A stretch of 59,212 bases of DNA. Origin: Chitinophagales bacterium (GTDB taxonomy: Bacteria; Bacteroidota; Bacteroidia; Chitinophagales; JADIYW01). The stretch is taken from NCBI GenBank assembly GCA_044357355.1, contig JBIKPT010000001.1, forward strand, positions 1 through 59,212, written 5' to 3'. Made by a program: the position numbers and the translations under genes. Of this stretch, positions 2,729 to 33,306 are shown piece after piece. The number at the start of each line of letters is the position of its first letter. The stretch's first letter is position 1. The notes beneath the pieces were generated by a model. That model ran no database searches, was not told where the DNA came from, and saw nothing but the letters and a program-made list of their open reading frames with translations.

Positions 2729-3733
2729 TCAAACTGCAGTTTTTGTGCTTTTTAAGATTTTGTAAAATTGTTCTGCAGTTGTTTCCCAATTAAATTTTAC
2801 TGCTCTTTTTAATCCTTTCTCCATTAAATCCTGACGCAATAATGCGTTTGCTGCTAACTGACTCATCGCTTCTTTTATAGCAATTACTGATTCCGGATTT
2901 ACCAATACTGCGGCATCACCTGCAATTTCTTTACAAGATGTAGCATCAGAGGTTATGACCGGAATTCCGCAAGCCATCGCTTCTGCAATGGGCAAACCAA
3001 ATCCTTCATGCAGTGAAACAAAAACCAATCCGAGTGCCTGCTGGTAAAAATCTAACAGTTGCTCTTCAGAAATATTGGTATTTATTATCTCTACTCCTTT
3101 AATAGGTTCTTTTAATTCATATGGTTTTACTATAGCAATCAAACGAGGTCGTGTATGTTCGTCCAGTTGTTGATAAGCTTTCAGCAGGCGCTCAAAATTC
3201 TTTTTCTTTTGATAGGAAATAACAGTGAAAAAATAAGGTGCTTCGATTTTTTTCTTTGCTGCCGGTTTGAATTTCTCGTGATCAACGCCATTCCAGACAG
3301 CCGTAATTTTATCTGCAGGAAAGCCAACCGAATTTACGAGTTCACTTTTTGTGTAGTTACTGACTGTCATGACATGCGTAATATGTGCTTGCATCAGACT
3401 CCATTTTATTCGCTCTTTCCATCTTTTCAATTGTCCTGAAATTTGCTGTCGTGGTGTGAAATAAAACGTATCCAAAGGCAGCGTAAACATGGCCATTCCG
3501 TGCACGGTCAGCACCAGCGGTTTTTTTGTTTTCCGAAAGGCTAAAGGCGGTGCAATGCCACCACCGCAACGTGGATCCCAATATATATCTGCCTGCTCAA
3601 CCGGTAGTTCTTGTAAAGTTTTAAAGATGACGAACTCAATATTGTATTTCTCCTGAAGTATACGCATAATATTCCAGGCACAATGTTTCATGCTGTAAGG
3701 TGTATTTTCGGGCAAATAAACAGCTACTTTCAT
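2729..3733 (-). CDS. Glycosyltransferase family 4 (GT1-fold)
   Basis: EGFGLPIAEAMACGIPVITSD (EX7E region). I place the start at the internal ATG (MKVAVYL...), which gives an ATGA overlap with the upstream flippase stop. The ORF-track start at 3820 lies inside that gene. Confidence 0.8.
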   Translation of the reverse strand: MKVAVYLPENTPYSMKHCAWNIMRILQEKYNIEFVIFKTLQELPVEQADIYWDPRCGGGIAPPLAFRKTKKPLVLTVHGMAMFTLPLDTFYFTPRQQISGQLKRWKERIKWSLMQAHITHVMTVSNYTKSELVNSVGFPADKITAVWNGVDHEKFKPAAKKKIEAPYFFTVISYQKKKNFERLLKAYQQLDEHTRPRLIAIVKPYELKEPIKGVEIINTNISEEQLLDFYQQALGLVFVSLHEGFGLPIAEAMACGIPVITSDATSCKEIAGDAAVLVNPESVIAIKEAMSQLAANALLRQDLMEKGLKRAVKFNWETTAEQFYKILKSTKTAV

Positions 3734-5088
3734 TTTTGCTTTTTCAGATTTAAAAATGGCAGATAGACTATATAAAATCCGAATGTTTTTTTTATGTAGA
3801 CCGTTCCAATGATATTCCAAAGTACCATACTGATGGCATTTGCGATGGCAGCACCTTCTATTCCAAATTTTGGTACCAGTATAAGATTCATTGCAATATT
3901 TAGCACGGCTCCTAAGAGAGAAATATTTCTGAATTGTTTATGGTGCCCTGTGGCATTTAACAACTGCGCAACTGGTCCGCAAAACGTATTAAACACCTGA
4001 CCAATGGTTAGTATAGACAGACAAATTGCTCCTCTCATAAACTCAAGCCCATACAACCACATCACGTATTTTGAAAAAAACAACAGAATTATAAAAACCG
4101 GCACACTCAGTAAAAAAATCAATTTTGAAGATTTATACGCAATGCGCTGCACTTCATCTAATTTTTTCTGAGTATACAATTGTGTTATTTTAGGCTGTAC
4201 GGTTGTGTTCAAGGCAACTAACAAAGTAGCAGCAAGCATGGAAATATTCGTGCATGTCTTGTAGATTCCCACTAAGTCTGTGCCAACACCATAGAATTTT
4301 AAAATAAAAACATCAGCACTATTCGTCACTAAAAAAGCAGCATAGGTCATTAACATCGGAAATGCCACAGTCAACACCTGCTGGTGATTGACTGCTTGTA
4401 ATTTTTCTTCTTTTGCCGCTGGCTGATGAAAATATTTATATATCGGAATCAATGAAAATAACCAAGGCAGTAAACACAAAGTACTCCAATGTAGATAAAT
4501 AGGATTGAAGGTGTCAAAAAAATAAAACGTTATTACCAATAAAACCAGCAAACGGGTTATTGTCGGTAAAACCAACGACATATTTGCCGTATGTACTTTT
4601 AATGCAGCACGAAGGCTGAAATAATTCAATTCACCCAACACATAAAACGGCAAAAAAAGTGCAGAAATTCTGAACAGCCATAACATATTCGGCTCGTTCC
4701 AGTAAGTGATTAGCCAAGGTGAAATAAAATAAAGAAGTACAGCAGCTATCAAAGAAAAAAACAGAATCAACTGATTGCCTTTAAAAAAGATAGCATATGC
4801 CGTTTTGAGGTTATATTTTTCTCTTAATTCAGGAATTAATTTTTGCAAGGCTTCTTTTACGCCAAAATTGATAAAGATGGCAAAAATACCCATTACCGTA
4901 ACAATCAATGTAAGCCTGCCGGAAGCTTCGGCACCATAATACCTTCCAATTAAAACACCTGATATAAAACGTAAGCCTTGCACAAAAAACAAGGTAATAG
5001 CAGTGGACAAACTACCTTTCAGTACAAAACCAAAATTCTTGTCCTGTAAGGCATTCTGAAATTTATCTTTATACGATTGAATATTCAA
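3730..5088 (-). CDS. Wzx-type oligosaccharide/polysaccharide flippase (MOP superfamily)
   Basis: 452 aa, about 12-14 predicted TM helices, polysaccharide-biosynthesis-protein-like N-terminus. Translationally coupled to the GT4 gene. Confidence 0.7.
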   Translation of the reverse strand: MNIQSYKDKFQNALQDKNFGFVLKGSLSTAITLFFVQGLRFISGVLIGRYYGAEASGRLTLIVTVMGIFAIFINFGVKEALQKLIPELREKYNLKTAYAIFFKGNQLILFFSLIAAVLLYFISPWLITYWNEPNMLWLFRISALFLPFYVLGELNYFSLRAALKVHTANMSLVLPTITRLLVLLVITFYFFDTFNPIYLHWSTLCLLPWLFSLIPIYKYFHQPAAKEEKLQAVNHQQVLTVAFPMLMTYAAFLVTNSADVFILKFYGVGTDLVGIYKTCTNISMLAATLLVALNTTVQPKITQLYTQKKLDEVQRIAYKSSKLIFLLSVPVFIILLFFSKYVMWLYGLEFMRGAICLSILTIGQVFNTFCGPVAQLLNATGHHKQFRNISLLGAVLNIAMNLILVPKFGIEGAAIANAISMVLWNIIGTVYIKKTFGFYIVYLPFLNLKKQK

Positions 5089-5105
5089 CGGTGCTGTTTA
5101 CTTTG

Positions 5106-5113
5106 CAAAAATA
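5106..5113 (-). promoter_or_regulatory. Candidate -7 box for the flippase-GT4 operon
   Basis: The minus strand reads TATTTTTG, 17 nt upstream of ATG 5088. Confidence 0.35.
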
Positions 5114-5202
5114 GGTAATTGACCTTTATTTACACTACCTTTGAAAAAGTTCTGCATCAAAAGAATATGAACTTTTCCAAAGTTTAATTTCTTATTTTTT
5201 AT

Positions 5203-5210
5203 TATTTTTG
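5203..5210 (+). promoter_or_regulatory. Candidate -7 box for the MBOAT operon
   Basis: TATTTTTG, 32 nt upstream of ATG 5243. A second match, TACCTTTG, lies at 5136-5143. Confidence 0.35.
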
Positions 5211-5242
5211 AAGACGTCTAGAAAATGCGCTAAAAACAGAAC

Positions 5243-6754
5243 ATGCTATTTAACTCCTTACATTTCTTACTATTTTTTCCCGTTTTCTGTTTTCTCTATT
5301 TCAGTGTTCCAAAGCAATACCAATGGAAAATTTTAGTGGCTGGCGGTTATTATTTTTATGGAAACTTCAGTCCGTTTTTTGCTGTCATTTTATTTGTGAT
5401 TACCTGCAATGATTTTTTAGCAGGCATTATGATGGATAAAGCATCAACACAACAAAAAAAGAAAAAATGGTTGTTTTTAAGCATGGTTGGAAATTTAGGG
5501 ATTTTATTTACATTTAAATATCTGGATTTTGCTGATAACAACATTCGGGATTTTTTAGCGGTTTTTAATATCCCATGGTTTGTGCCTGAGCCTTTGTTTA
5601 ACAATTGGATTGTACCTGTTGGTGTTTCGTTTCTTACCTTTCAATCCTTAAGCTACACCATAGATGTTTATAAAGGTGTAACAAAAGCCGAAAAACATTT
5701 CGGGTATTTTGCTTCTTTCACGGCCTTCTGGCCGGTAATGGTGAACGGACCCATTGAGCGTGCTAAAAATTTATTACCACAAATAAAAGAAGAACATCGG
5801 TTTGATTACGACAGAATGCGGCATGGTTTATTTCGTATGGCCTGGGGCTTTTTTAAAAAGGCGGTTATTGCTGACAGACTCGCTTTTTATGTAGACAATC
5901 TTTATTTGCATTATGATGTAATTTCCGGCTGGACTACGTTAATCGGTGGTTTATTTTTCTTTATTCAGGTATATTGCGACTTTTCAGGATATTCTGATAT
6001 TGCATTTGGTGCCGCAAAAGTAATTGGTATTGATGTGATGGAAAATTTCAAACGTCCGTTTTTCTCTAAAAACTTAGCAGACTTCTGGACACGCTGGCAT
6101 ATCTCACTTTCTACCTGGCTGACGGATTATGTATTTTTCTATTTGGGTGCATATAAAGCAAGCGGCGGCAAGGTGATTTTCAACGTTATTTTTGTTTTAG
6201 CTATTTGCGGTTTGTGGCATGGTGCCAACTGGCCGATGGTGCTTTCATTCACGATGGTGGGCGTGTTTATGGCTATCCGCTATTGGTGGCAGGCAAATGT
6301 TGTTCGAGTTATAAAACCAAGCAATTCTTACCGATTGTTTGATAAATATATACCGGATTGGATGCATAGCATTGCAACCATATTATTGTTTCTGTTTTGT
6401 TTCTTATTATTCAGAGTGCATACAGCGCAAATGGCTATCAATCATATGCATCCGGATGCTCCGGTGGAATGGACAACGATTGCCAAAACGCTTTATACTA
6501 ACTTATTTAAGCTTCATACAGCAGGTTATTTCCAGGAATGGATGATTAATAAAGGTATTGTTCAGTTTGCTATTGCCGTTTTCTTTGTCTTTGTTTTATT
6601 TATAACAGAGGCTATTATTGGTGATGCTAAAATTGAATCAATAGTGCTGGCTAAAGAAAAACCGCAACGATGGGGAATTTACATCGTATTAGTAGTGAGT
6701 ATTGTCTGGTTTGGAATTTTTAATAACACTTCTTTTGTTTATTTTCAATATTAA
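5243..6754 (+). CDS. MBOAT-family membrane O-acyltransferase (AlgI/DltB-like)
   Basis: 503 aa polytopic protein. MLFNSLHFLLFFPV N-terminus and FWTRWHISLSTWL...CGLWHGANW (invariant MBOAT His) are characteristic of AlgI/DltB. Confidence 0.85.
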   Translation: MLFNSLHFLLFFPVFCFLYFSVPKQYQWKILVAGGYYFYGNFSPFFAVILFVITCNDFLAGIMMDKASTQQKKKKWLFLSMVGNLGILFTFKYLDFADNNIRDFLAVFNIPWFVPEPLFNNWIVPVGVSFLTFQSLSYTIDVYKGVTKAEKHFGYFASFTAFWPVMVNGPIERAKNLLPQIKEEHRFDYDRMRHGLFRMAWGFFKKAVIADRLAFYVDNLYLHYDVISGWTTLIGGLFFFIQVYCDFSGYSDIAFGAAKVIGIDVMENFKRPFFSKNLADFWTRWHISLSTWLTDYVFFYLGAYKASGGKVIFNVIFVLAICGLWHGANWPMVLSFTMVGVFMAIRYWWQANVVRVIKPSNSYRLFDKYIPDWMHSIATILLFLFCFLLFRVHTAQMAINHMHPDAPVEWTTIAKTLYTNLFKLHTAGYFQEWMINKGIVQFAIAVFFVFVLFITEAIIGDAKIESIVLAKEKPQRWGIYIVLVVSIVWFGIFNNTSFVYFQY

Positions 6755-6760
6755 TATCGG

Positions 6761-7843
6761 ATGCTGAAGAAAACGCTCAAACATATTTTACTGGTTGCAG
6801 TCATTCTGCTGGTCTTATCTTCGCTGGTAAGATATTTTATGCCATTTTATTGGGGCGATTCTACACAGACAGTAAAATATGAATATTATAAAAAAAACGC
6901 TGAAGCGTATAATGCCGTTTATCTGGGTGGAAGTTTAGAGTACAGACATATTGATCCGACGATTATTGATAGCATGGCAATGAAAAATGGAATTGACTTC
7001 CATTCATTTAATTTAGGTATTGATGGTCACGGCATCATTCAGCAGATGAGTGATTTGCAAGGCTTACTGCAAATTCGTAATCCGAATCTCAAATATATCT
7101 TTCTGAGTATAAGCAGTGAGCCGTATTTCTTTAAATCTAATTTACATACTCCAAAATGGGTTTCGTGGCATAGCGCTCAATCAACTTACAATGCATTGAG
7201 TATTATTCCATCTTTAGAAGAACCTTTAAAATTTCGCTCTAAGTTCAGTGGATTCTGGATATCCAGCTGGATAGAGAATCTATTTAATATTGGTACCGTG
7301 CCGGATATGCTGAAATATCATTTGGATAAGACTTATCTGGATTCGAGCTATATCGGAAAAGATTTGAATGGATTTTATCCGTATGATTATGAGGAAAATC
7401 ATTTGTTTATGGAATACAAATGGGAAGACACTTTACTTTTACAGTCGAGAAAACAATTCGAAAGCGGTGACTCCTATTCTGACACCTTGAATAAACGGGT
7501 ACTTGCCTCTTTTTCAAACTACAAAGGTGCTGAAAAACCAAATACAGCCATGGTTAAACTTTGCATGGATGCCTACAATGCCTGTAAAAAACGCGGTATA
7601 CAAGTATTTTTTATTTTGCCGCCAAAGGCTCGAACTACCTATAGTTTATTATTACCGGTATTTAATGCAATGCCTGAAGGTTCAAAAATAGAACTCGCAG
7701 ACATCAGAAAGTATCCTAAATTTTATACTATAGAATATGGTTATAATTTCCATCACTTAAACTACAAAGGTGCCAGATTATTCAGTAATGAAATGGCTAA
7801 GCAAACGATTCAATTATTAAAAGCAGAGAAAGATTCTATCTGA
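6761..7843 (+). CDS. Membrane-anchored extracytoplasmic protein, putative SGNH/DltD/AlgJ-like partner of the MBOAT
   Basis: Starts 6 nt after the MBOAT stop. Single N-terminal TM helix. VYLGGSLEY resembles the DltD GSSE/SGNH block I serine. C-terminal FHHLNYKGARLFS resembles the SGNH block V D/x-x-H...G motif. Pattern-level assignment only. Confidence 0.45.
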   Translation: MLKKTLKHILLVAVILLVLSSLVRYFMPFYWGDSTQTVKYEYYKKNAEAYNAVYLGGSLEYRHIDPTIIDSMAMKNGIDFHSFNLGIDGHGIIQQMSDLQGLLQIRNPNLKYIFLSISSEPYFFKSNLHTPKWVSWHSAQSTYNALSIIPSLEEPLKFRSKFSGFWISSWIENLFNIGTVPDMLKYHLDKTYLDSSYIGKDLNGFYPYDYEENHLFMEYKWEDTLLLQSRKQFESGDSYSDTLNKRVLASFSNYKGAEKPNTAMVKLCMDAYNACKKRGIQVFFILPPKARTTYSLLLPVFNAMPEGSKIELADIRKYPKFYTIEYGYNFHHLNYKGARLFSNEMAKQTIQLLKAEKDSI

Positions 7844-7854
7844 TGTTCAAAAAA

Positions 7855-8364
7855 TCAAATAGGCTCTACGGCTTTATGCACCTTAAATGCATAGATACGT
7901 TGAAGATAATAAGAAGTTGCTACAACGATAACTGATGTAATTAATCTGGATGGCAACGGATAAAAATGCAGTACTTCCACAAAAAATTTCAAAAATCCAA
8001 CATTCATTACTACGCACAAAGCAACCACACTCAGGTAATTGACCACTTGTCGTCTACCTCTAACTATAGAGTTTGTCCATACTACATAACGGCTCAGGTA
8101 AAAGCCTGTTGGCGTACTAATCAGAAATGCTAAAATCAATGATGCAATATGCGGACTGAATGTGAAAAAAGATGTTTTAAAATTTTGCGCAGTAAAAATA
8201 TAGTGATAGGCAACAAAGAAAATGGCCATATCAAATGCCAGATTCAAACCGCCACATGCCATATATAGATAACTTTGTTTGGGAATAAATCTGAAGAACC
8301 ACTCACGTATCGTTAATAAAATGGCTCGTATAAAATTGGCAAGCAGAATCATCTTTACAAACAC
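7855..8364 (-). CDS. GtrA-family small membrane protein
   Basis: 169 aa, 4 TM helices. GGLNLAFDMAIFF and YLSRYVVW motifs are typical of GtrA-like proteins. Confidence 0.7.
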   Translation of the reverse strand: MFVKMILLANFIRAILLTIREWFFRFIPKQSYLYMACGGLNLAFDMAIFFVAYHYIFTAQNFKTSFFTFSPHIASLILAFLISTPTGFYLSRYVVWTNSIVRGRRQVVNYLSVVALCVVMNVGFLKFFVEVLHFYPLPSRLITSVIVVATSYYLQRIYAFKVHKAVEPI

Positions 8365-8391
8365 AAAGATAACAAAAACAAATAAATACGG

Positions 8392-9069
8392 CTATAGCAA
8401 CTGTGGCAACTGAATCAAGTTTATTTTATATTCAAAGTCTTTACTGCTGCAAACACAGCAACTATAGATTGCTTCTATAGATATAAATGCATACACAAAC
8501 TCAGTGGTATCACATAACACTTTGCCGGTCTTGCTCAATGATATCTTATCAGATAACACCACATGTGTATCAGATAGAATTTCCACACCACGTCCATCAC
8601 ATTTTATCGCGCTTTCTTTAAGCGACCAAAAATCAAAAAATGTTTTTTGCGGATTTTCGGACAAATCTATGTTCATGCATTCCATTTTATCAAAATAACG
8701 GTCTGCAACATTCATTTTTAAGATTCGATGCTTTTCAATATCGATTCCAACTTTGGAAAAATCTGAAATGGCAACAATGACATAATCACCGGAATGAGAA
8801 ATATTAAAATCAATTTCTTCATTTATAAATGGTCTGTCTTTTGCACCAATTTTAATATCATGTAATGTGTAGTTTAATGCTAATTGCTGAAATGCTTTTT
8901 TCAAAAGTACTTTACCCAACAAAGAAGCTTGTGCGCTTTGCCAGTGTTTGTAAGCGTTTATGTCTTGTTGAAATGAATCAGGCAATTGCAATAAAAATTG
9001 CTGAAAAATCTTTTCTGGTAATTTTTCTGTTTGTTTGAGGTAGAATATATGAATGGTGCTATTTTTCAA
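8392..9069 (-). CDS. Sfp-type 4'-phosphopantetheinyl transferase
   Basis: FNISHSGDYV, VGIDIE and WSLKESAIK (W/F-x-x-KE-A/S-x-x-K) PPTase motifs. Overlaps the thioesterase gene by 11 nt. Confidence 0.85.
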   Translation of the reverse strand: MKNSTIHIFYLKQTEKLPEKIFQQFLLQLPDSFQQDINAYKHWQSAQASLLGKVLLKKAFQQLALNYTLHDIKIGAKDRPFINEEIDFNISHSGDYVIVAISDFSKVGIDIEKHRILKMNVADRYFDKMECMNIDLSENPQKTFFDFWSLKESAIKCDGRGVEILSDTHVVLSDKISLSKTGKVLCDTTEFVYAFISIEAIYSCCVCSSKDFEYKINLIQLPQLL

Positions 9070-9760
9070 CGGGTAATTTCATTTTTATAAAATCAACAAC
9101 TTCATTGTTTTCGTACATAAAGAAATGTCCGCCTTTAAAATATTTTACTTCAATATCTAATGAAAAGAATTTTTTCCAACCTTGCATTTTTTCTTCTGTC
9201 ACATTTCTGGTGTCTTTATCGCCGAATAAAATGGTTGCAGGAATATTAATTGATTCAATACTTTCAAATGTTTCGTTAAAGTGTTGGAGCATTTCGAAAT
9301 CACTTCGCAAAATCGGCTCGTAAAACTCTTTTAATTCTTTGTGTTGTAATAATTGTTCCGGAACACCATCGTATTGTTGCACAACGTTCCAAAATTCTTC
9401 TGATGAAATCCCAATAATACTCGGTTCGTTTTTGTAGGCATCAGGACTTAAACGCGATGCTAAGAAAAGATGCCTAGGTAAGGATCTGTTTTCCTGTTGT
9501 AATTTGTACGCCAGCAAAAAGCCAATTATAGAGCCCATACTGTTGCCAACAATAAAATACTCTTCAGGCTGTTGTTTTATGAGTTGCTCATATATATCAT
9601 TAACGGCTTCCTGCAAACTTTTAACGAATGGTTCCGCTATTCTGTCACTTCTTCCGGGCAGTTCAAACGCCATACTTTCAATTTCAGGCAACAGCTGTTG
9701 CTGCATCTTTCTGTATGCATATTTGTCGCCGCCAGCATGGTGTAATAAAATTGCTTTCAT
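9059..9760 (-). CDS. Type II (discrete) thioesterase, alpha/beta hydrolase
   Basis: 233 aa. GNSMGS nucleophile elbow (GxSxG) and C-terminal GGHFF histidine motif. Size and layout match TEII/GrsT-like enzymes. Confidence 0.8.
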   Translation of the reverse strand: MKAILLHHAGGDKYAYRKMQQQLLPEIESMAFELPGRSDRIAEPFVKSLQEAVNDIYEQLIKQQPEEYFIVGNSMGSIIGFLLAYKLQQENRSLPRHLFLASRLSPDAYKNEPSIIGISSEEFWNVVQQYDGVPEQLLQHKELKEFYEPILRSDFEMLQHFNETFESIESINIPATILFGDKDTRNVTEEKMQGWKKFFSLDIEVKYFKGGHFFMYENNEVVDFIKMKLPVEK

Positions 9761-9770
9761 TTAAAAAATT

Positions 9771-9958
9771 AACCACATAGATACATAGATTTTTTTTATT
9801 AAAGCATAATGAGTTGGCAGTATTTTTTCGTGCGCTTTAGTGAATCATAGTTATTCATCAAAGATGAATCTATGAAATCTTATCTATTCATTATTATAGA
9901 ACATCCGAAATGGTATGCATATAAAAGAATAACAAGGCTATGCATCTATGTGGTAAAA
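9771..9958. repeat. CATAG-rich inverted-repeat element, copy 1 (terminal arms plus central hairpin)
   Basis: Left arm aaccacatagatacatagatt (9771-9791). Right arm ctatgcatctatgtggtaaaa (9938-9958) is its reverse complement at 17/18 positions. Central hairpin catag-tta-ttcatc-aaa-gatgaa-t-ctatg (9846-9874). Fills the PKS2-to-thioesterase spacer. Confidence 0.6.
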
Positions 9959-13192: not shown

Positions 13193-13210
13193 TGGTTAGT
13201 ATTAAAAAAT

Positions 13211-13237
13211 TCACGCAAAGGCGCAAAGTTCGCAAAG
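13211..13237. repeat. Word-triplet spacer element tcacgcaaag-gcgcaaag-ttcgcaaag
   Basis: Fills most of the 47-nt spacer between the PKS1 stop and the PKS2 start. In gene sense it reads ctttgcg-aactttgcg-cctttgcgtgaa, then an A/T run, then ATG. Confidence 0.7.
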
Positions 13238-13239
13238 CA

Positions 13240-16200
13240 TTAATCCACCTTGCTGCTTAATTCTTTCATCAGTTCTTCTAAAGATAAATTTTTCACTTCT
13301 GATTCTATATCGTTTTTCACCAGCACGGGTTCTTCCTTATTTTCTTCTTTCTTAATTGAAAACTGCGCATCAAGATTTAACTCATTGCCAATAAAATCAG
13401 CCAGCTTTTGCACGGTTGGATATTGCCAGACAGCAGCCACATTTATCGACAAACTAAAATCATCTTGCAATTTATTTTTCAACTGTAAAGCATGCAAAGA
13501 ATCCACACCTAATGCTTTAAACGTTTCATCTTCTTTGATTTTAGAAACGGCTAATTTAGTGGCTGAAGAAATATGTTGTTTTATTCTGTCCTTGATGTGT
13601 TTTTTGTAATCGTCTATGCTTGCAAAAGCAGTTTTGTCCGCTACTGTTGTAGAAATTACATCGGTTGATTGACTCACCACTTTACTATAAAAATTATTTT
13701 TTAAAACAGCGTGATTGAATTGCGACCATTTCGTGAAATCAATTTCCATTGCCATCACTTGTGTAGCATCACTTAAAAACAAGCTGTCAAAATAAGCATT
13801 CAATTCGCTTGGCTGAATAGCGGTAACGCCTTGTTCTGCTAATCTGTCGGCTCTATTTTCCTGACGAGCGGCCAAACCAATTTCTGCAATAGTGCCAAAA
13901 TCTACAGACAATGAAGATTGATTATTAGCTTTTCTAAAATGCGCCAGACTATCCATAAAGGTATTGGCAGCATTGTAGTTGGATTGACCTGCAGAGCCAA
14001 CAATACCTGCTGCGGACGAATACAACACAAAGAAATCCAAATTTATACTTTGTGTCAAATGATGCAAATTCCATGCACCGATTGCTTTCGTATTAATTAC
14101 GTTTTCAAATTGTGCTTTCGTTAGGTTCTCAAACGCACCATCATCCAAAATTCCAGCTGCATAAAAAACACCAGCGATATTTAGAACTGAAGAAAGTGCA
14201 TCGTTTAATGAATCTATATTTGTTACATCTGACATTACATCATTTATAAAAATGCCTTCTTCTTTATATTTCTCAAATAAAGCTTGTGTTTCACCTTTTG
14301 CGCCGCTTCTGCTCAGCACTAAGATATTTTTTGCTTTATTTTCTACCAGCCATTTTACTGTAGATAAACCTAAACCGCTGGTACCGCCAACTACCACGTA
14401 GGTTTTATCAGCATAAATCTGTTTTGTTTTCTTTAAAGCGGCAGTAGTTTTCTCAATAGCTGATGTATAAACAGATTGATGTCGTACTGCAATTTCTTTA
14501 TATTTTTTATCTGCAAAAACTAAGCTTGCTATTTGATTAATTTCTTCATCTTTGATTTCATTAGAAACATCGAGTTGAAGGAAATTAATTTCTTCGTGTT
14601 CATTTTCCAAGGTACGCAGCACACCTGTAAACATGGCTGCATTTAGGTTGGCGTTTTTATCCTGATTTAAAATAAAACCACCATTCGTGACCACGCAAAT
14701 TTTCGGATGCTGTTGTGTTGCATTAAAATGATTGATTAATTTTTGCAACGATAAAATGCCACATTCCAGATAAAAACTAAATTCTGTTTCTTTATAAAAG
14801 CTACGCATATGAATCACCATATCCGCTTTTATTCCTTCTAAACTATCATTCAAATCAATAGTTGTAACCGTACAGCCTTTTTCTTTTAATGCACTCTCAA
14901 CATTTTTATAATGTTCATAGGTGTCTTTTATAATCAAAATATTTTGTGCTGAAATTCTTGCGGCTATTTTTATTTCGTTCCAGTTAATCTTGTATAAATT
15001 TTTAGAAATATCTTTCTTAACAACGTTTAAAGTGGAAACAAACTCAGGTTGCTGATCAAACCAATAGCGTTCTTTTTGCCATGCATAATTTGGCAATAGT
15101 ACAAACTCACCGATATTCGGATAAATAGATTTCCAGTCAACCCAAAAATTACCTGCATGCAATTCTCCAATGTTGGAATAGAATTCAGTCAGCTCATCTT
15201 TATCTCGTGCGTACGAAGCAATGGCAACCGCGTTTGCCTCTTGTATATTTTCATTCATTGCATGAATCAGCAATGAATGCGGACTCATTTCTATAAATGC
15301 TACTTGTGATTCTTTTAAAATTTCCTGCACTGCAATTCCAAACTGCACCGGATTTCTTAGGTTTTTTGTCCAGTAATCAGCATTTAAATTTTCACCGTTT
15401 ACCATTTCATTGGTTGCAGTAGAATAAAATTGTATGGTTGAATTTTGTGGTTGAATACTTTCTAATGCCTGAAACAAATCTTGTTTGATTGCATCCATTT
15501 GTGGTGAATGCGATGCTACATCTACTTTTACTTTTCTGTTGAATCTTCCCTGAGATTCCAGTTTGGCAAATACTTCATTTAAAGCGGTTGGCTCACCGGA
15601 AATTACGGTTGAATTTTTGCTGTTCATTACAGCAACCGATAATCTGTCTTCGTAACCTTTCAACAAATCATTAGCTTCCTCCACAGTTAAATCAGTTGCA
15701 CCCATTTCGCCTTTGCCGCTGAGTGGTTTCATCAACTTACTGCGTGTGATGATAATTTTGGCAGCATCGTCTAAGGAAATATTTCCGGCAACGTAAGCAG
15801 CAGCAATCTCACCCATACTATGGCCAATAACCACATCCGGGAAAACACCTTTGCTCATCCACAAAGCTGCCAATGCAATTTCCACTGCAATTAAAACAGG
15901 TTGCACAATATCAATTTCATGCAATCTGCTTTCGCTTTCCGGTTTATTGATTTCTTCAACTAAATTCCAGTCAACATATTTATTAAAAACCGCAGCACAT
16001 TCTTCTAATTCACTTTTATAAACAGGTTCACTTTCCATCAATGCTTTTCCCATGGAAATCCATTGTGCACCTTGTCCGGGAAAAACAAAAACTGTTTTAA
16101 TCTTTTCTTTTGTATCAAATTTCTTTTTGCTTATGTAATTAGAATTTTCAGAAAAGTCTTTTAACTTTTCAATCAACTCTTCTTTAGTAGTTGCTACAAA

Positions 16201-17784
16201 GGTTTCGCGCAAATCAAAATGTGCACGACGCAAAGCAGCCATCGCACAAATATCTATTACTGCCTTTTCACTCTGTTCTATAAAATCAGCATATGTATTT
16301 GCCAAATCTAGTAATGCCTGTTCGCTTTTGGCAGACAATGGCAACACAAAAATATCGTTGCGTAATTTTTGTTTTTGCGGAGGAAACGGATTTTCCGGTG
16401 CATCGCCAATTATTATATGTGCGTTAGAACCTGTTGCTCCAAAACCACTCACACCAGCATAACGAATTTTTCCATTTTCACGTTTCCATGCTATATTGTC
16501 TTTTGCAACTACAATCGGAATCTTATTCCAGTCAATAAGTGTATTGGGTGTATGAAAGTGAATAGATTTTGGAATAATATCGTGTTGTAAAGCGGTGATT
16601 ACTTTAAACATACTTGCCATTCCGGCATTGCATTCCATGTGACCGATATTGGATTTTATAGCACCAATATATAATGGTTTATCTTTTGTTCTATAATTTT
16701 TATAGGCTAATAAAATGCCATTTATTTCTACAGGATCACCAACTTTTGTTCCGGTGCCATGCGCTTCAATGTAATCGATATCTGTTGGTTGCAGTTGTGC
16801 ATTTTTTAAAGCCGCCGCGTGCATCAATCCTTGTGCTGCAGTGCTAGGTGCAGTTAGGCGTTTACTTTTTCCATCCTGATTTACGGCAGAACCTTTGATA
16901 ATGGCCAAAATATTATCACCGTCTTTTTGTGCATCGCTCAGTCTTTTTATAATCATAGCGCATACACCTTCTGAGCGAATGTAGCCATTGGCTGCATCAT
17001 CGAATGATTTGCAGCGAGCTTCCGGTGACAATGCACCTAATCTGCAAAAATTCAGAGACTGATCCGGTTCAGAAATGATGCTGGCTGCACCTACGACTGC
17101 AATTTTACAATCTTTATTGCGCAATGCCTGCATGGCAACATGCGTACAGGTAAGCGCAGAAGAGCACGCCGTATCGATGGTCATGCAGGGACCTCGCAAA
17201 CCCATGGTGTATGAAATTCTGCCGGATGCGCCGGTTGGACCGGTTCCTGTATAGCAATAACCGGAAATTAATTTATAATCTTTAGAGCGAATTTGTCTGG
17301 CTTCGTAGTCTACATTATCGATACCGATAAATACACCGGTATCTGAACCAACTAAAGAATTTACATCGATGCCTGCGTTTTCAAAAGCTTCGTGTGTAAC
17401 TTCTAAGAGCAAGCGCTGTTGCGGATCGGTACTTTCTAATTCTATAGGTGAAATATTAAAAAAAGGTCCGTCTAAATATTCGATATCTTCAATAAAACCG
17501 CCTTCTTTCACATATAGTTTTCCCGGTGCATTTGGATCCGGATCGTACAAGGCATCTTTGTCCCATCGGTTAGCCGGAATTTCTTCTATACAATCAATCC
17601 CATTTACTAAAACATTCCATAAATCACCGGCATTTTTTATTTTGCCCGGTAAGCGCATCGCCATACCAACTATTGCAATTGGTTCTGTGTGAATTGATTT
17701 TTCCTGTTCTAATTGTTGTATCGTTTCAGCAAGCTGACGTTGGATTTCTTCTAACTGGATTTTGTAAGATTCAATATCTTCCAT
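13240..17784 (-). CDS. Type I polyketide synthase, KS-AT-(structural psi-KR)-KR-ACP
   Basis: N-terminal coiled coil. KS about nt 16405-17685 (DTACSS Cys207, EAHGTGT His342, NIGHME His382). AT about 15205-16092 (GHSMGE Ser656, VASH 756-759). KR about 13870-14412 (GGTSGLG Rossmann, LDD 1213-1215, SNYNAAN Tyr1270). ACP about 13375-13602 (GVDSL Ser1429). No DH HxxxGxxxxP motif and no ER. Confidence 0.9.
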   Translation of the reverse strand: MEDIESYKIQLEEIQRQLAETIQQLEQEKSIHTEPIAIVGMAMRLPGKIKNAGDLWNVLVNGIDCIEEIPANRWDKDALYDPDPNAPGKLYVKEGGFIEDIEYLDGPFFNISPIELESTDPQQRLLLEVTHEAFENAGIDVNSLVGSDTGVFIGIDNVDYEARQIRSKDYKLISGYCYTGTGPTGASGRISYTMGLRGPCMTIDTACSSALTCTHVAMQALRNKDCKIAVVGAASIISEPDQSLNFCRLGALSPEARCKSFDDAANGYIRSEGVCAMIIKRLSDAQKDGDNILAIIKGSAVNQDGKSKRLTAPSTAAQGLMHAAALKNAQLQPTDIDYIEAHGTGTKVGDPVEINGILLAYKNYRTKDKPLYIGAIKSNIGHMECNAGMASMFKVITALQHDIIPKSIHFHTPNTLIDWNKIPIVVAKDNIAWKRENGKIRYAGVSGFGATGSNAHIIIGDAPENPFPPQKQKLRNDIFVLPLSAKSEQALLDLANTYADFIEQSEKAVIDICAMAALRRAHFDLRETFVATTKEELIEKLKDFSENSNYISKKKFDTKEKIKTVFVFPGQGAQWISMGKALMESEPVYKSELEECAAVFNKYVDWNLVEEINKPESESRLHEIDIVQPVLIAVEIALAALWMSKGVFPDVVIGHSMGEIAAAYVAGNISLDDAAKIIITRSKLMKPLSGKGEMGATDLTVEEANDLLKGYEDRLSVAVMNSKNSTVISGEPTALNEVFAKLESQGRFNRKVKVDVASHSPQMDAIKQDLFQALESIQPQNSTIQFYSTATNEMVNGENLNADYWTKNLRNPVQFGIAVQEILKESQVAFIEMSPHSLLIHAMNENIQEANAVAIASYARDKDELTEFYSNIGELHAGNFWVDWKSIYPNIGEFVLLPNYAWQKERYWFDQQPEFVSTLNVVKKDISKNLYKINWNEIKIAARISAQNILIIKDTYEHYKNVESALKEKGCTVTTIDLNDSLEGIKADMVIHMRSFYKETEFSFYLECGILSLQKLINHFNATQQHPKICVVTNGGFILNQDKNANLNAAMFTGVLRTLENEHEEINFLQLDVSNEIKDEEINQIASLVFADKKYKEIAVRHQSVYTSAIEKTTAALKKTKQIYADKTYVVVGGTSGLGLSTVKWLVENKAKNILVLSRSGAKGETQALFEKYKEEGIFINDVMSDVTNIDSLNDALSSVLNIAGVFYAAGILDDGAFENLTKAQFENVINTKAIGAWNLHHLTQSINLDFFVLYSSAAGIVGSAGQSNYNAANTFMDSLAHFRKANNQSSLSVDFGTIAEIGLAARQENRADRLAEQGVTAIQPSELNAYFDSLFLSDATQVMAMEIDFTKWSQFNHAVLKNNFYSKVVSQSTDVISTTVADKTAFASIDDYKKHIKDRIKQHISSATKLAVSKIKEDETFKALGVDSLHALQLKNKLQDDFSLSINVAAVWQYPTVQKLADFIGNELNLDAQFSIKKEENKEEPVLVKNDIESEVKNLSLEELMKELSSKVD

Positions 17785-17811
17785 TGTACATTTACTTAAC
17801 AGGATAAAGAA

Positions 17812-17826
17812 GTAACTTAAAGTTAC
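17812..17826. promoter_or_regulatory. Perfect 15-bp palindrome gtaactt-a-aagttac in the wzz-PKS1 spacer
   Basis: Read directly from the sequence. Centred 35 nt upstream of the PKS1 ATG. Candidate operator or RNA hairpin. Confidence 0.3.
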
Positions 17827-17852
17827 ATATTCTCAGAATAAACGACAAAAAT

Positions 17853-18929
17853 TTATTCAGCAGTGGCAGCAGCCAGTTTTGCTGCTTTGATTTTATCTTC
17901 TTCTCTGCCGTCATTGATTGCTTTCTGGATAAGCAGTGGAATAATGATAAATATCAAACTTACTGCAAATCCAATTGCAGCAAATAACAATTTACTTTTA
18001 TGTTTGGGCGATGTAGAAAACATTGGGTCGTCTATAACACGCACAATATTATTTTGCGGTACCATACCAGCTTTAGCATTTTCTTTAGAAGTAGTTGCAT
18101 CGTTATACATCACACCGAGTGTTGCCAGTTCCTGCATAATTTTTTGCTGGTCTACCGTTTCAATTCTTTTCTTGTTAAAAATATTCTGATCTTGCGACTG
18201 AGCAATCATTCTTTGCCGGTAAGCAATTTCTCTGGAAATTGAATCCAAACGTTTAGTTACACTTCCAAGTGAGGTTGCCGCATTTTCTAATTGTTTGGTT
18301 TGATAAAATTTTACGGTATTATTTAACAATGTAGAACCTAAGATTCTGGATACGTCATAATCTGGTGTTTCAATTTCTGCTCTGATGACACCGGATGTTA
18401 AATCGTATTCAGCAACCATTAATCCGCCAAAATAATCATCATACATCATTCCTAAAAAATCCATTTCCATTTTGCTCAGTTCATCTATTGAATTGGCACG
18501 AAATTTAAAATCTTTAAGCAACGAATCTTTTTCAAAGCCGTCATTATATTTAAAAGCACTAAAATAGAAATTGGCTAATTTATCTGTCTTTCCATTTATT
18601 TCTACATCTGTAAGCATGGAATTGAGAAAAACATATCGGGACGTAAATATTCCGGTTAATACATCATTTGATGAACCACCAGCAAAAGAGACACCCATCA
18701 TAGACATGATGCCACCTACAGCACTGGTTCTGGAGTCTACTGCATTGAATGCAATATTGGCAATGTATGCCGGTGGTGATAATTTTGCGAAATAATAACC
18801 GCCTGCGGTTAATGCTGCGACACCTACAATAGAAATATACCATTTCTTCAACAAATAGACGAAGTAACTCCTGAACGATTCAAGAACATCGACTAACCTT
18901 ATATCTTCTTCTGAAAATTGCTGTTGCAT
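17853..18929 (-). CDS. Wzz-like polysaccharide co-polymerase / chain-length determinant (no tyrosine-kinase domain)
   Basis: 358 aa with one TM helix near each end and a long coiled-coil-rich periplasmic segment. Lies 6 nt downstream of the Wza-like gene. Confidence 0.65.
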   Translation of the reverse strand: MQQQFSEEDIRLVDVLESFRSYFVYLLKKWYISIVGVAALTAGGYYFAKLSPPAYIANIAFNAVDSRTSAVGGIMSMMGVSFAGGSSNDVLTGIFTSRYVFLNSMLTDVEINGKTDKLANFYFSAFKYNDGFEKDSLLKDFKFRANSIDELSKMEMDFLGMMYDDYFGGLMVAEYDLTSGVIRAEIETPDYDVSRILGSTLLNNTVKFYQTKQLENAATSLGSVTKRLDSISREIAYRQRMIAQSQDQNIFNKKRIETVDQQKIMQELATLGVMYNDATTSKENAKAGMVPQNNIVRVIDDPMFSTSPKHKSKLLFAAIGFAVSLIFIIIPLLIQKAINDGREEDKIKAAKLAAATAE

Positions 18930-18935
18930 GTATTA

Positions 18936-21374
18936 TTACTGTTTCAAAACAAAAATCAATGTTAAAGTGGTTGCGATGGATGTTATCGCTGCGATAACAC
19001 TTGGCAATACTATATTCCAGTTCAATGCTGACTCCGGTCCCTTAGGTGGTTTTGGTGCTTTCTGTTTCATCTCAACGGTAATTAATGCACCTTCATTATC
19101 TACAGTAGGGTAATTTTTTATACCAATAAAAGAACGTGTGTAGTCAACTTTTCTGTTTGGATAAATAACTAAGGTAGATTTTTTCTTAGCTCCTTTTTTG
19201 AAACCACCACCATAATGTTTAACATACCAGCGCGCACTTTTTCCGGCAACGAATTTTCCGTTTATCGTTTGCGTGCTGTCCATATTAGGGTAACGGATTG
19301 CTCCTTTTATACTTACTAATTGGTTGACAGTAGGAATTTCAATGATATCACCGTTCTTCAGAATTAAATTTGCTCTGGATGCTGTATCTCCAAATGCATC
19401 TTTTAACTGAAAAATGGTTTGTGTTAACCCATTATCCGGTCTTGTTAATCTAGCGTTTTTAATAAAGGCATAAGGTGTTAATCCACCGGCTCTTTCAATA
19501 ACATCTAATACTTTTTCATTCTTATCTAAAATCGGATAGATACCAGGATACTTCACTTCACCTTTTAGTGTTACAACCATTTGCTCGTCAAATCCGTAAA
19601 TTTTTCTAACATACACTCTATCCATTGGTGCTAATGGAAATGCTTTGGACACATCATCTATTTCCAAATTTGGTCCAATTGTGATTGTCTGTACTACGAC
19701 TCTTTGCGGTGTGAATTTTTGTTCTGCACTGGAATCAATATTCATAATACGGGAAATCTCTATTTTTGAATTTGCCGCTTCTTTTTTAAGACCACCTGCA
19801 TAAAACAATAAATCATTTAAATTAATTCCGTCTGTAAACTCCTGTATTGTAGGCTTGATAACAGAGCCATCTATTGACACAACGAATTTCTCTAGGAATT
19901 CATCTTTGGAAAATAACTGAATCTGATCACTGCGTTTAAGCAATAAATTATCTGGTGAACTTTCATCAATTAGAATATTTTTTAGTGAAAATTTCTGGTT
20001 AACAAATGTATTATCATCCAACTTTCTTTTGATGTATGCTCTTTCCAGATAGGTTTCCAGCTTGATACCACCTGCTGCTTTAATGATGTCTGATACGCGG
20101 AATCCTTCTTTTAATTCATATTTTCCCGAATAACGCAATGGTCCGGTAATATTTACAAAGTTTTCTATTCCACCAGGAATATTTGAAATATTTACGATGT
20201 CGCCATCTTTTAATTCAAAGTTCGAGTTGGCACTTAAGATTTGCTCATAATCAACATCAATAATTTGTGCTTTATCATTATTTATTCTGGTTACCTGTAT
20301 GAGCTTAATGTAAGCATCCGGCGCAAATCCACCGGAAAAAGTGACTAACTCATTCAGGTTTTCACCTTTCAATAATTCATATTTGGCGGGACGGCGAACT
20401 GCGCCTGAAATTTTTATTAACTTGCTTTGGGTAGACACATAAATGAAATCTCCTTTTTGCAAGAAGAAATTTTCTACCAGCAACGGATTGAATAAAAACT
20501 CATACACGTCAAAACGCTTGATGGTTTTACCATCTCTGCGCACTTGAATATCACGTACACTACCAATGTCCGTTATACCATTTGCTGCATTTATAGCGTT
20601 GTATACAGAGTTAATAGCAGGAATTTGATAGGTTCCCGGTGCTTTTACTTCGCCAACAATATTTACATCAATGGTTCTCGCATAATTTAATGTTATTTCA
20701 TATTTGGTGTTGGCTGGATTGATAAAAGTGGCCAGCCTTTTTCCAATTTGAGCCTTAACTGCTCCAAACGTTAACCCTTTTACATAAATACGGCCAAATT
20801 CAGGAATTTGAATAAAACCATCGTCATTCACTTTAAAATTGTTGTTGTAATCAGCATAACCCCAAACGGCAATACTTATTTCGTCACCAACATCAAGAAT
20901 GTAAGAATCCGGTGCTTTAGAATCTGATGATTTTGAAAACAAGGCTAATCTTCCGGAACCAAAGAAATCATGTCCGAAAATTTCGTTGGGCTTTATTTCA
21001 TTATTAGGATTGGCAATTTTATCCATTCTTTCCATCATAATTTGCATGGAATCTTGTCTGACTCTCATTTCCAAAACCGTTTGCAACATATCTTGCATCG
21101 GAGTTGATTGATCAGCAGGAGCATCGGTTGCATCAGATTTAGCTTTTAAATACTTTTGAACTGCATTGGGGTCTAAGCCTAGTAACTGCAATTGTGACAG
21201 ATTCGCAGCAGATGTTGGATTACCTGAATTGAATGTTTGTAATTGCCTTGCAGCATTAGCAGCGGCAGCTGTAATGGAAGTACCTGTCATCGACCCGGCA
21301 AAATTACCGAAATTCTGAGGATAAACTACAAATACTGAGCATATTAGAAAACACAGCGTAACTAATTTTTTCAT
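18936..21374 (-). CDS. Wza/BexD-type polysaccharide export protein with multiple SLBB repeats
   Basis: Signal peptide from MKKLVTLCF. YILDVGDEISIAVWGY Poly_export motif. Repeated GD-x-I-x-V/I soluble-ligand-binding beta-grasp units. C-terminal TM helix. ATG 21374 is preferred over TTG 21398 because a TACCTTTG -7 box overlaps 21396-21403. Confidence 0.8.
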   Translation of the reverse strand: MKKLVTLCFLICSVFVVYPQNFGNFAGSMTGTSITAAAANAARQLQTFNSGNPTSAANLSQLQLLGLDPNAVQKYLKAKSDATDAPADQSTPMQDMLQTVLEMRVRQDSMQIMMERMDKIANPNNEIKPNEIFGHDFFGSGRLALFSKSSDSKAPDSYILDVGDEISIAVWGYADYNNNFKVNDDGFIQIPEFGRIYVKGLTFGAVKAQIGKRLATFINPANTKYEITLNYARTIDVNIVGEVKAPGTYQIPAINSVYNAINAANGITDIGSVRDIQVRRDGKTIKRFDVYEFLFNPLLVENFFLQKGDFIYVSTQSKLIKISGAVRRPAKYELLKGENLNELVTFSGGFAPDAYIKLIQVTRINNDKAQIIDVDYEQILSANSNFELKDGDIVNISNIPGGIENFVNITGPLRYSGKYELKEGFRVSDIIKAAGGIKLETYLERAYIKRKLDDNTFVNQKFSLKNILIDESSPDNLLLKRSDQIQLFSKDEFLEKFVVSIDGSVIKPTIQEFTDGINLNDLLFYAGGLKKEAANSKIEISRIMNIDSSAEQKFTPQRVVVQTITIGPNLEIDDVSKAFPLAPMDRVYVRKIYGFDEQMVVTLKGEVKYPGIYPILDKNEKVLDVIERAGGLTPYAFIKNARLTRPDNGLTQTIFQLKDAFGDTASRANLILKNGDIIEIPTVNQLVSIKGAIRYPNMDSTQTINGKFVAGKSARWYVKHYGGGFKKGAKKKSTLVIYPNRKVDYTRSFIGIKNYPTVDNEGALITVEMKQKAPKPPKGPESALNWNIVLPSVIAAITSIATTLTLIFVLKQ

Positions 21375-21395
21375 TATAGTGGGTTGTTGAGTTGA

Positions 21396-21403
21396 CAAAG
21401 GTA
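21396..21403 (-). promoter_or_regulatory. Candidate -7 box for the wza-wzz-PKS operon
   Basis: The minus strand reads TACCTTTG, 21 nt upstream of ATG 21374. Confidence 0.4.
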
Positions 21404-32487: not shown

Positions 32488-32524
32488 AATCAATTATTAA
32501 ACAAATCAATTAAATTTTTAAAAA

Positions 32525-33301: not shown

Positions 33302-33306
33302 TAAAA

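Follow-up and report, generated by a model that had tools for sequence, protein, structure and literature searches.

What would a pair of type I polyketide synthases (PKSs) do in the middle of a surface-glycan locus? The question is raised by a stretch of 59,212 nucleotides from a Chitinophagales bacterium (JBIKPT010000001.1, positions 1-59,212, forward strand), referred to here as the window; coordinates are those of the window unless another locus is named. Seven co-directional genes on its minus strand code, in this order, for a Wza-like exporter, a Wzz-like polysaccharide co-polymerase (PCP), a PKS with ketosynthase (KS), acyltransferase (AT), ketoreductase (KR) and acyl carrier protein (ACP) domains, a second PKS of KS-AT-ACP type, a thioesterase (TE), a phosphopantetheinyl transferase (PPTase) and a GtrA-family protein, with successive gaps of 6, 68, 47, 198, -11 and 27 nt. 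A previous interpretation of the same DNA, hereafter the sequence-only reading, had described this run and its operon-like spacing. The open reading frame (ORF) map reproduced the gene coordinates and all six gaps, and the gene order was matched by predicted structures and by Pfam, which was run on 44 ORFs of the window. Altogether, ORF map, Pfam and reading of the sequence placed eleven genes, their spacing, an ATGA overlap and a TACCTTTG box where they had been reported. The arrangement is thus real, and it goes well beyond what chance would give.

Our favoured interpretation is that the block, about 19 kb long, is an envelope-biogenesis locus passed on by vertical inheritance, in which a two-module cis-AT PKS would make the lipid of a glycoconjugate, as its aglycone or anchor, and the co-polymerase/Wza pair would deliver the molecule to the cell surface. 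We hold this tentatively, at a probability of roughly 0.45. The sequence-only reading had likewise proposed a polyketide built for, and exported with, a surface glycan. Recurrent linkage in other genomes supports that proposal, while the uncoupling of the PKS pair from wza in one sublineage, the existence of MBOAT/DltD-like pairs without PKS genes and the acyl-shuttle motif fused to the MBOAT count against it. Gene content and synteny favour the view that the locus is a functional unit, since the co-polymerase subfamily tracks the PKS, PKS modules are swapped within a constant frame, and the block is kept where its flanks have decayed.

Related loci from other genomes are labelled L001-L067, and percentages of identity are given relative to the window. 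A scan anchored on the co-polymerase, with one genome per GTDB species, yielded 26 loci that were mapped by tblastn; 25 of them include upstream DNA and are informative for Wza adjacency, and 24 include downstream DNA and are informative for PKS adjacency. All 26 belong to metagenome-assembled genomes (MAGs) labelled Chitinophagales, Saprospirales, Sphingobacteriales or more broadly Bacteroidota, Bacteroidetes or Bacteroidia, and the carrier MAGs were for the most part recovered from activated sludge and freshwater. A divergent mnmE gene, then wza, then directly the co-polymerase gene were found in 25 of 25 loci, and a PKS gene follows on the same strand, about 70-170 nt after the co-polymerase gene, in 21 of 24. 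The sequence-only reading was to be abandoned if this adjacency occurred in no other genome; Wza, co-polymerase and PKS genes are in fact contiguous in these 21 species loci. Where the DNA of a locus continues, the genes for the second PKS, TE, PPTase and GtrA usually come next. The other end of the block was reached by an independent metagenome scan anchored on the DltD-like gene, whose family comprises 81 clusters. The loci recovered in this way (L039, L041, L048 and others) carry GT4, Wzx, MBOAT, DltD-like, GtrA, PPTase, TE, PKS2 and PKS1 genes in unchanged order.

The linkage extends to distant relatives of the co-polymerase. The Wza/co-polymerase/PKS adjacency is also present in L006, whose co-polymerase is only about 32% identical to that of the window, and in L065 and L066, which hold a more distant member of the subfamily (profile E-value of 1.6e-82 for the L065 protein). 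A relative that falls outside the subfamily (L067, E-value 4e-48) is preceded by Wza and followed by an FAD oxidase, with no PKS gene, which indicates that the PKS link is specific to the co-polymerase subfamily. In L067 (10001-12734 of that locus), the protein encoded after the Wza/co-polymerase pair has FAD_binding_4 and FAD-oxidase_C domains; because this family includes alkyl-DHAP synthase, L067 may represent a further lipid-linked form of the export pair.

Inside the constant export and glycan frame, the number of synthases varies between one, two and three, and the window has two. L006, L016 and L017 possess an additional synthase of 2139-2183 aa (KS-AT-DH-ER-KR-ACP) ahead of the other two. 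L065 and L066 have a single fully reducing KS-AT-DH-ER-KR-ACP synthase of 2169 aa after the co-polymerase, and a first module with a KS resembling the fully reducing type has replaced the usual one in L010, L026 and L027. The flanks differ as well, around a block that is retained: beyond mnmE, L003 has an RHS-type protein and a PALP enzyme, and L010 shows a rearranged TonB/citrate synthase region. In the window, GC content is uniform over the region and nothing marks the block as recently acquired.

Proteins of the locus and a proposed pathway

The first gene of the run (18936..21398, minus strand) encodes a protein of about 812-820 aa from the Wza, or outer-membrane polysaccharide export (OPX), family. 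Its likely start is the ATG at 21374. Pfam recognized a Poly_export domain together with five SLBB and three SLBB_2 stretches, and NCBIfam returned EpsE and PEP-CTERM exporter models, both below cut-off. The next protein (17853..18929, minus strand; 358 aa) was more difficult to name. Attempts to identify it at the sequence level were discarded, as Pfam, NCBIfam and a PDB profile search gave no match above chance level, and both structure and transitive hidden Markov model (HMM) matches were needed. The AlphaFold model, built on 48 homologues (pLDDT 80.9), has a transmembrane helix at either end and, between them, a long coiled coil predicted to be the periplasmic domain; the chain stops after the second helix. 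The top 39 Foldseek matches in the PDB are all co-polymerases, namely Wzc (E-value 1e-7), KpsE and WzzE. The target-normalised TM-score against KpsE (8tsh) is 0.54-0.60, and Wzc and WzzE match equally well. An exhaustive profile search of 1.8 billion proteins retrieved 1160 relatives at E<=1e-10, mostly of about 350 aa, some distant ones with weak Wzz and GNVR Pfam domains. Predicted fold and the Wzz/GNVR domains of HMM relatives thus point to a divergent kinase-less co-polymerase, in line with the Wzz-like, kinase-free assignment made before. The close subfamily is small, with 64 clusters at 90% identity and about nine representatives at E<=1e-77 among the 1.8 billion proteins.

The two PKS genes, PKS1 (13240..17784; 1514 aa) and PKS2 (9959..13192; 1077 aa), are on the minus strand. 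Pfam assigned KS-AT-KR-ACP to the former and KS-AT-ACP, with no reductive domains, to the latter, at domain E-values of 1e-7 to 1e-88 and in agreement with the sequence-only reading. The KS of PKS1 retains the Cys-His-His triad in the motifs DTACSS, HGTGT and NIGH, which are conserved in orthologues. Its AT carries GHSMG and a VASH motif that we take to be nearer to the YASH type of branched-extender domains, its KR has GGTSGLG, YxxxN and the LDD motif of B-type reductases, and its ACP has GVDS. In PKS2, the Cys, His and His residues are kept within the unusual motifs DAACAS and HGIGN (HGIGN[RK]FTDA) and in NIGH, while the AT has GHSIG and the malonyl-type HAFH, and the ACP has GFDS. PKS1 possesses docking-like coiled coils at both termini. 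It ends in LSLEELMKELSSKVD, and PKS2 begins with a coiled coil; both elements are conserved, as expected for a docking pair. Among the matches listed, PKS1 orthologues are confined to uncultured Chitinophagales or Bacteroidota; they share its architecture at 44-94% identity. The closest solved structure to the KS-AT of PKS2 is that of CurL (E-value 2.5e-194, residues 4-909). The PKS is an ordinary cis-AT assembly line, and by Pfam neither protein has a loading module, a DH or ER domain, a thioester reductase or a thioesterase domain at its C terminus.

Less ordinary is the way in which PKS2 continues past its ACP, with a tail of about 60 aa (residues 1015-1077; 9962-10150, minus strand) that has the pattern ..ADIMFNQEME..DWHEIKPEDG.LLRWFKK.DK..PSVK. 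It has no Pfam match and is conserved in ten of ten aligned sequences (the window and nine orthologues), including the 50%-identical L006 protein; the PKS2 motifs, like the tail, are found in all orthologues compared. The tail may be a docking or membrane-contact element for a release partner. Each PKS of the window has one ACP, and relatives of 1615-1650 aa carry two. Such single KS-AT-KR proteins with two tandem ACPs are the PKSs of L005 and L007 (1618-1650 aa) and the middle PKS of L006. Those of the L005/L007 type occur in unrelated contexts in other Chitinophagales genomes, and the same contigs appear to carry MBOAT/DltD-like pairs elsewhere.

Downstream of the PKS genes, a discrete type II-like TE (9059..9760, minus strand; Pfam PF00975) has its best PDB matches in RifR, the surfactin TEII and TE2 of the human fatty acid synthase (FAS). 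Its gene is absent from L010 and L028 and truncated in L009, so the enzyme is dispensable in one lineage. The gene overlaps by 11 nt with that of an Sfp-type 4'-phosphopantetheinyl transferase (8392..9069, minus strand; AASDHPPT_N and ACPS in Pfam), whose best NCBIfam match is HetI, below cut-off. The run ends with a small membrane protein of the GtrA family (7855..8364, minus strand; Pfam GtrA_DPMS_TM, 2.9e-12). Most related loci have it at the same position, which an Acyl_transf_3 gene occupies in L003. Beyond the convergent acyltransferase pair lie a Wzx-like flippase of the MOP superfamily (3730..5088, minus strand; Polysacc_synt, MatE and MurJ in Pfam) and a GT4 glycosyltransferase (2729..3733, minus strand; Glycos_transf_1 and Glyco_transf_4, called by Pfam on 2729-3820). 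The ATGA from which translational coupling of these two genes had been proposed is present in the sequence, shared by the stop codon of wzx and the start of the GT4 gene at 3733-3730.

The sequence-only reading saw neither a Wzy polymerase nor an initiating phosphoglycosyltransferase, and we also found no Wzy_C domain and no such transferase among the 44 scanned ORFs, a set that leaves aside ORFs shorter than 120 aa and about ten of at least 120 aa (40225-41207, 51691-52095, 53222-53632, 54790-58978 and overlapping ones). The same two functions were not found among the called genes of the related loci whose Pfam tables were read. Their absence fits a non-classical lipid acceptor, or else the genes may lie elsewhere in the genome. 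Likewise, Pfam detected no ABC transporter, membrane fusion protein (MFP) or KpsC/KpsS-type capsule-synthesis domain in the 44 ORFs.

On the plus strand, an MBOAT acyltransferase of 503 aa (5243..6754; Pfam MBOAT) is followed by a DltD-like extracytoplasmic acyltransferase of 360 aa with an N-terminal helix as its predicted membrane anchor (6761..7843). The MBOAT protein is related to DltB (NCBIfam 1.5e-37, below the equivalog cut-off; PDB 6bug, E-value 2.6e-20) and keeps both conserved histidines (RWH and WHG). It ends in SFVYFQY, where FVYFQY corresponds to an FxYxxF-type tyrosine acyl-shuttle, with the final Phe replaced by Tyr, fused to the enzyme. Such a fusion is a hallmark of the acyl-CoA users PatA and AlgI, while DltB, whose acyl group is supplied by the carrier protein DltC, has no fused motif and works with a separate microprotein, DltX (PMC12148441). 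By sequence, the partner gave only marginal matches (Pfam DltD, E-value 0.007, and a weak NCBIfam DltD match). However, the sole significant fold matches of its AlphaFold model (pLDDT 88.9) in the PDB are DltD structures (3e-5 to 1e-3), which agrees with the SGNH/DltD-like label given to it earlier. Invariant residues include the serine of GGSLE (S58) and H332 in a C-terminal HH.N. Given the DltD-like fold of the partner and the fused FVYFQY of the MBOAT, the pair looks like a hybrid between a DltD-type partner and a PatA-type shuttle. Our default reading is that it probably O-acylates an extracytoplasmic polymer or glycolipid, acetylation being the reaction we would expect.

From these parts, a pathway can be proposed. 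In keeping with the established function of its family, the PPTase would activate both ACPs. PKS1 would be primed with a pre-made acyl chain, since it has no loading module, would add one extender and would reduce the product to a D-3-hydroxyacyl group; this step is suggested by the active KS, the B-type KR with its LDD motif and the branched-extender-like VASH of the AT. Docking through the conserved terminal coiled coils would then bring in PKS2, whose domain content, if the modules are used colinearly, predicts the addition of one unreduced malonyl unit to give a 5-hydroxy-3-oxoacyl-ACP. The TEII-like thioesterase or another partner might release the chain, a step weakened by the loss of the TE in one lineage. 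Family functions and conserved linkage suggest the remaining steps: the GT4 enzyme would glycosylate the lipid or a lipid-linked intermediate, the MOP flippase would carry the glycosylated lipid across the inner membrane, the MBOAT/DltD-like pair would O-acylate the flipped molecule outside, most likely from acyl-CoA, and the kinase-less co-polymerase and Wza would pass it through the periplasm and the outer membrane.

Alternative roles of the polyketide

A number of observations weigh against a PKS-made lipid delivered by the export pair. All carriers of the locus are MAGs of uncultured organisms. Wza/co-polymerase pairs normally export polymers, yet no polymerase was found in the scanned ORFs, and a single GT4 enzyme cannot build a polysaccharide. 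MOP flippases are known for polyprenyl-diphosphate-linked substrates. In addition, co-transcription with wza is not obligatory, because in the sublineage of L029, L030 and L036 the PKS pair has been displaced. In L029 (equivalent to L008 and L001), it is inverted and lies about 8 kb from wza, with no TE, PPTase or MBOAT gene after it. The interval between co-polymerase and PKS pair is filled by genes for a GHMP kinase, a GT4 enzyme, a dehydrogenase of the isocitrate/isopropylmalate type and a CHAT protein as well as by two others, whose counterparts are found at 52-59 kb in the window; L030 and L036 start in the same way after the co-polymerase but end before the point where the PKS pair would appear. 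As a separate observation, comparison of L008/L029, L030, L036 and L001 with positions 50540-58978 of the window places the breakpoint exactly at the co-polymerase/PKS1 junction. The rearranged pair is inverted between a cNMP-binding gene and a CCP_MauG/HTTM cluster that in the window is about 31 kb from the locus.

The displacement suits the main rival explanation, in which the genes are neighbours and not partners. The PKS, TE and PPTase genes would form a small cluster for a free lipid-like metabolite, for instance an alkyl-dihydropyrone or a hydroxy-ketone, the Wza/PCP and MBOAT/DltD-like/Wzx/GT4 sets would be parts of a dispersed exopolysaccharide pathway, and the adjacency would reflect shared ancestry. 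The loci all fall into a single clade in which mnmE, too, stays beside wza, so part of the conservation is inherited and not selected, and the L029-type rearrangement parts the PKS pair from both of its flanks. Moreover, L042 has MBOAT, DltD-like, Wzx and GT4 genes but lacks a PKS within 10 kb, distant MBOAT/DltD-like pairs (33-40% identical) occur in other, PKS-free glycan contexts of Chitinophagales (L037, L038, L055 and L059), kinase-less co-polymerases of about 350 aa beside Wza are common, as the 1160 relatives indicate, and the Wzy and initiating transferase genes would have to be elsewhere in any case. Nevertheless, nearly all genomes have the PKS genes between the two sets of glycan genes, with short gaps on the same strand. 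The co-polymerase subfamily tracks the PKS down to about 32% identity, which the relative outside the subfamily does not. PKS modules have been exchanged in place instead of the cluster being moved, and housekeeping flanks have been rearranged around a block that was kept. On balance, we consider mere neighbourhood somewhat unlikely. A different role would be that of an O-acyl decoration, in which the PKS2-ACP chain passes to the DltB-like MBOAT and, through the tyrosine shuttle, to the DltD-like enzyme, to be esterified onto a glycan outside the membrane. We initially favoured such direct transfer on the likeness to the Dlt proteins: DltB and DltD are the best or only matches of the two enzymes, the donor of DltB is a carrier-protein thioester, as when DltC hands over D-alanine (PMC12148441), and in the locus ACP domains and a PPTase are adjacent where DltA and DltC are absent. 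The dispensable TE and the conserved post-ACP tail of PKS2 would fit as well, and in L057 MBOAT and DltD-like genes occur together with PPTase, TE and PKS2-like genes at only 37% identity. We downgraded this role, however, since the fused FVYFQY shuttle, which DltB does not have, is typical of O-acetyltransferases of the PatA/AlgI type that use acyl-CoA, and thus argues against transfer of the polyketide directly from the ACP. Furthermore, homologous pairs occur with no PKS nearby, and the literature searched held no bacterial MBOAT-SGNH pair that transfers a long acyl chain. An O-acyl decoration is therefore improbable in our view.

Least probable of all, and frankly speculative, is a dedicated lipid carrier, that is, a PKS product that replaces undecaprenyl phosphate as the membrane carrier for glycan assembly. 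The GtrA family is associated with the flipping of lipid-phosphate-sugars, and a GtrA-family protein is present here, as would suit a carrier; an initiating polyprenyl-phosphate transferase is lacking in the scanned ORFs, some relatives (L065 and L066) have only a fully reducing PKS of iterative type, and a carrier role was once proposed for RkpA. Mycobacteria provide a precedent in the mycoketide phosphate made by Pks12, which carries mannose (PMC8511953). However, two non-iterative modules cannot reach a chain of polyprenol length, and the locus has no kinase or phosphotransferase for the lipid. An envelope locus with a PKS-made glycoconjugate lipid accordingly stays our preferred reading. 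A more specific version of it, which we regard as rather doubtful, would be that an OPX/co-polymerase subfamily in Chitinophagales has become specialised for PKS-made lipid cargo in place of polyprenol or phospholipid pools, the product serving as primer or anchor for the GT4 enzyme. Such a primer would account for the missing initiating transferase and polymerase. The natural variants, with one to three synthases and one uncoupled sublineage, provide a comparative handle on the purpose of the lipid.

Promoter-like signals and neighbouring genes

A candidate -7-like promoter box of the Bacteroidota type, TACCTTTG (21396..21403, minus strand), is located 22 nt upstream of the likely wza ATG. 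The sequence-only reading counted it as the only good TAnnTTTG box and placed it before the first gene; the box is indeed there, but the motif is not enriched, and the PPTase/GtrA junction has another such box on the minus strand (8364-8371). The window contains 99 matches to TAnnTTTG against 93 +/- 9 expected, and at such chance frequency the single box is weak evidence. Its use as proof of a single operon was rejected for the same reason. Another box, TATTTTTG, is found upstream of wzx (5106-5113, minus strand). No minus-strand promoter-like box is present in the four gaps from wza to the TE gene, which speaks for the favoured interpretation. A sigma-70 scan gave 69 matches against 72 in shuffled sequences, and terminator-like hairpins were not enriched (18 against 13 +/- 3.5), with a weak one at 13227-13210 in the PKS1/PKS2 gap. 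An Rfam scan of the window matched zero families.

Membership in the locus is uncertain for the two genes past the GT4 gene. An Acyl_transf_3 gene (22-690, plus strand) is cut by the window edge, where the sequence-only reading had put it and Pfam agrees. Between it and the GT4 gene, a gene missing from that reading (697-2613, minus strand) encodes a PhoD-like phosphodiesterase or phosphatase with a C-terminal sorting domain for type IX secretion. The same order past the GT4 gene is found in L040 and L048, and L049 has PhoD-GT4.

Further away, genes for a SIS-domain isomerase, a nucleotidyltransferase and a HAD-type phosphatase (38278-40200, plus strand) and, 12 kb off, for a GHMP kinase beside a second GT4 enzyme (52158-54764, minus strand) together resemble a pathway for nucleotide-activated heptose. 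This GHMP kinase and GT4 may belong to the same glycan as the locus, since both directly follow the Wza/co-polymerase pair in L029, L030 and L036. An ORF of 1015 aa (55931-58978, plus strand) is homologous to large TPR and CHAT-domain (caspase-like) proteins of related loci; it adjoins a gene of the isocitrate/isopropylmalate dehydrogenase family, and this pairing is kept in L001, L008 and L030. Two clusters seem to concern metals. At 31672-35381 (plus strand), two tandem MbnP-family genes precede two tandem di-haem cytochrome c peroxidase genes (MauG/MbnH-like), an arrangement that corresponds to a duplicated MbnPH-like pair of the kind usually tied to copper acquisition. The second, at 43715-51673 (plus strand), comprises a LuxR-type response regulator, DUF4856, an imelysin (Peptidase_M75), an HTTM/vitamin-K-carboxylase-like membrane protein, a TonB-dependent receptor and another di-haem peroxidase; synteny with L001 is kept, and the gene content suggests a system for metal uptake.

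Comparison with known systems

With the Wzx/Wzy pathways for capsules and exopolysaccharides (group 1 of E. coli; capsular polysaccharide loci of Bacteroides), the locus shares a Wza-family exporter, a co-polymerase, a MOP flippase, a GT4 enzyme and O-acylation genes. Unlike them, it has no Wzy or initiating transferase in the scanned ORFs, one glycosyltransferase in the locus and a co-polymerase with no tyrosine kinase. In Wzc (PCP-2a), the kinase is the C-terminal part, whereas the 358-aa protein consists of the co-polymerase fold only. The acyltransferase pair resembles PatA/PatB, AlgI/AlgJ and DltB/DltD/DltX in the catalytic MBOAT histidines, the C-terminal FxYxxF-type shuttle and the DltD-fold partner with an invariant serine. 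In contrast to the Dlt pathway, the locus has no DltA ligase (no AMP-binding gene), no stand-alone DltC carrier and no separate DltX, and in contrast to known MBOAT-SGNH systems, the pair adjoins a PKS. An MBOAT protein with a DltD-type partner and a fused PatA-type shuttle would lend itself to testing how MBOAT-SGNH systems work in general.

As for the synthases, PKS2 is akin to the curacin PKS CurL, a cis-AT enzyme, in its KS-AT, its canonical domains and its docking termini. It differs from such assembly lines in that there are two modules only, no loading module or C-terminal thioesterase domain, unusual KS motifs and a post-ACP tail. Polyunsaturated fatty acid (PUFA) synthases have tandem ACPs and FabA-type dehydratases; the distinction drawn by the sequence-only reading holds, since each PKS of the window has one ACP and no DH domain. 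Heterocyst glycolipids of Nostocales (hgl, HetI, HglT, DevBCA-HgdD) are envelope glycolipids with 3-hydroxy or 3-keto oxygenation. They resemble the system proposed here in the combination of PKS/FAS-like synthases, an Sfp-type PPTase (to which the HetI match adds) and a glycosyltransferase, and in that some relatives of the locus have tandem ACPs and a fully reducing synthase. The differences claimed before were likewise upheld: the heterocyst system uses a terminal thioester reductase and a chain-length-factor KS, and the synthases of the window have neither: no reductase domain was called, and all KS domains keep the active Cys. Export differs too, with DevBCA/TolC (ABC, MFP and TolC) on one side and OPX/co-polymerase, with no ABC or MFP genes in the scanned ORFs, on the other. 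We rejected membership of the locus in the heterocyst-glycolipid, PUFA-synthase and classical Wzy-pathway classes, each of which has a defining feature that is missing from the scanned ORFs. The literature searched contained no characterised system that combines a PKS with Wza/co-polymerase and an MBOAT-type gene set, and does not contradict the claim that nothing like it has been characterised in Bacteroidota.

The nearest precedent is found in proteobacteria, where WcbR and RkpA are type I PKSs embedded among capsule biosynthesis and export genes (wcb of Burkholderia, rkp of Sinorhizobium; PMC3908369). With this precedent, the concept of a PKS within a capsule locus is not wholly new; its occurrence in this phylum and with this architecture has not been described before. 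The Kps loci with WcbR/RkpA encode KpsD (OPX) and KpsE (a kinase-less co-polymerase), families to which the pair in the window also appears to belong, KpsE being among the best fold matches of the 358-aa protein along with Wzc and WzzE. They differ in having a KpsMT ABC transporter, proteobacterial hosts and a single large PKS, whereas the window has a MOP flippase, two docked PKSs, a discrete TE, a PPTase, GtrA and the MBOAT/DltD-like pair. The likeness is drawn from gene content, and no WcbR or RkpA name appears among the best 120 matches of PKS1. To our knowledge, neither the product of the WcbR/RkpA PKS nor its role in capsule loci has been resolved so far. PKS genes are linked to an export pair in at least two dozen species of a phylum other than that of the WcbR/RkpA hosts, and a lipid-bearing surface glycan in activated sludge and freshwater could bear on floc formation, hydrophobicity and resistance to phages or predators. 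If the OPX/co-polymerase subfamily of Chitinophagales does export PKS-made lipid, it would give a tractable parallel to the part that WcbR/RkpA play in the capsules of proteobacteria.

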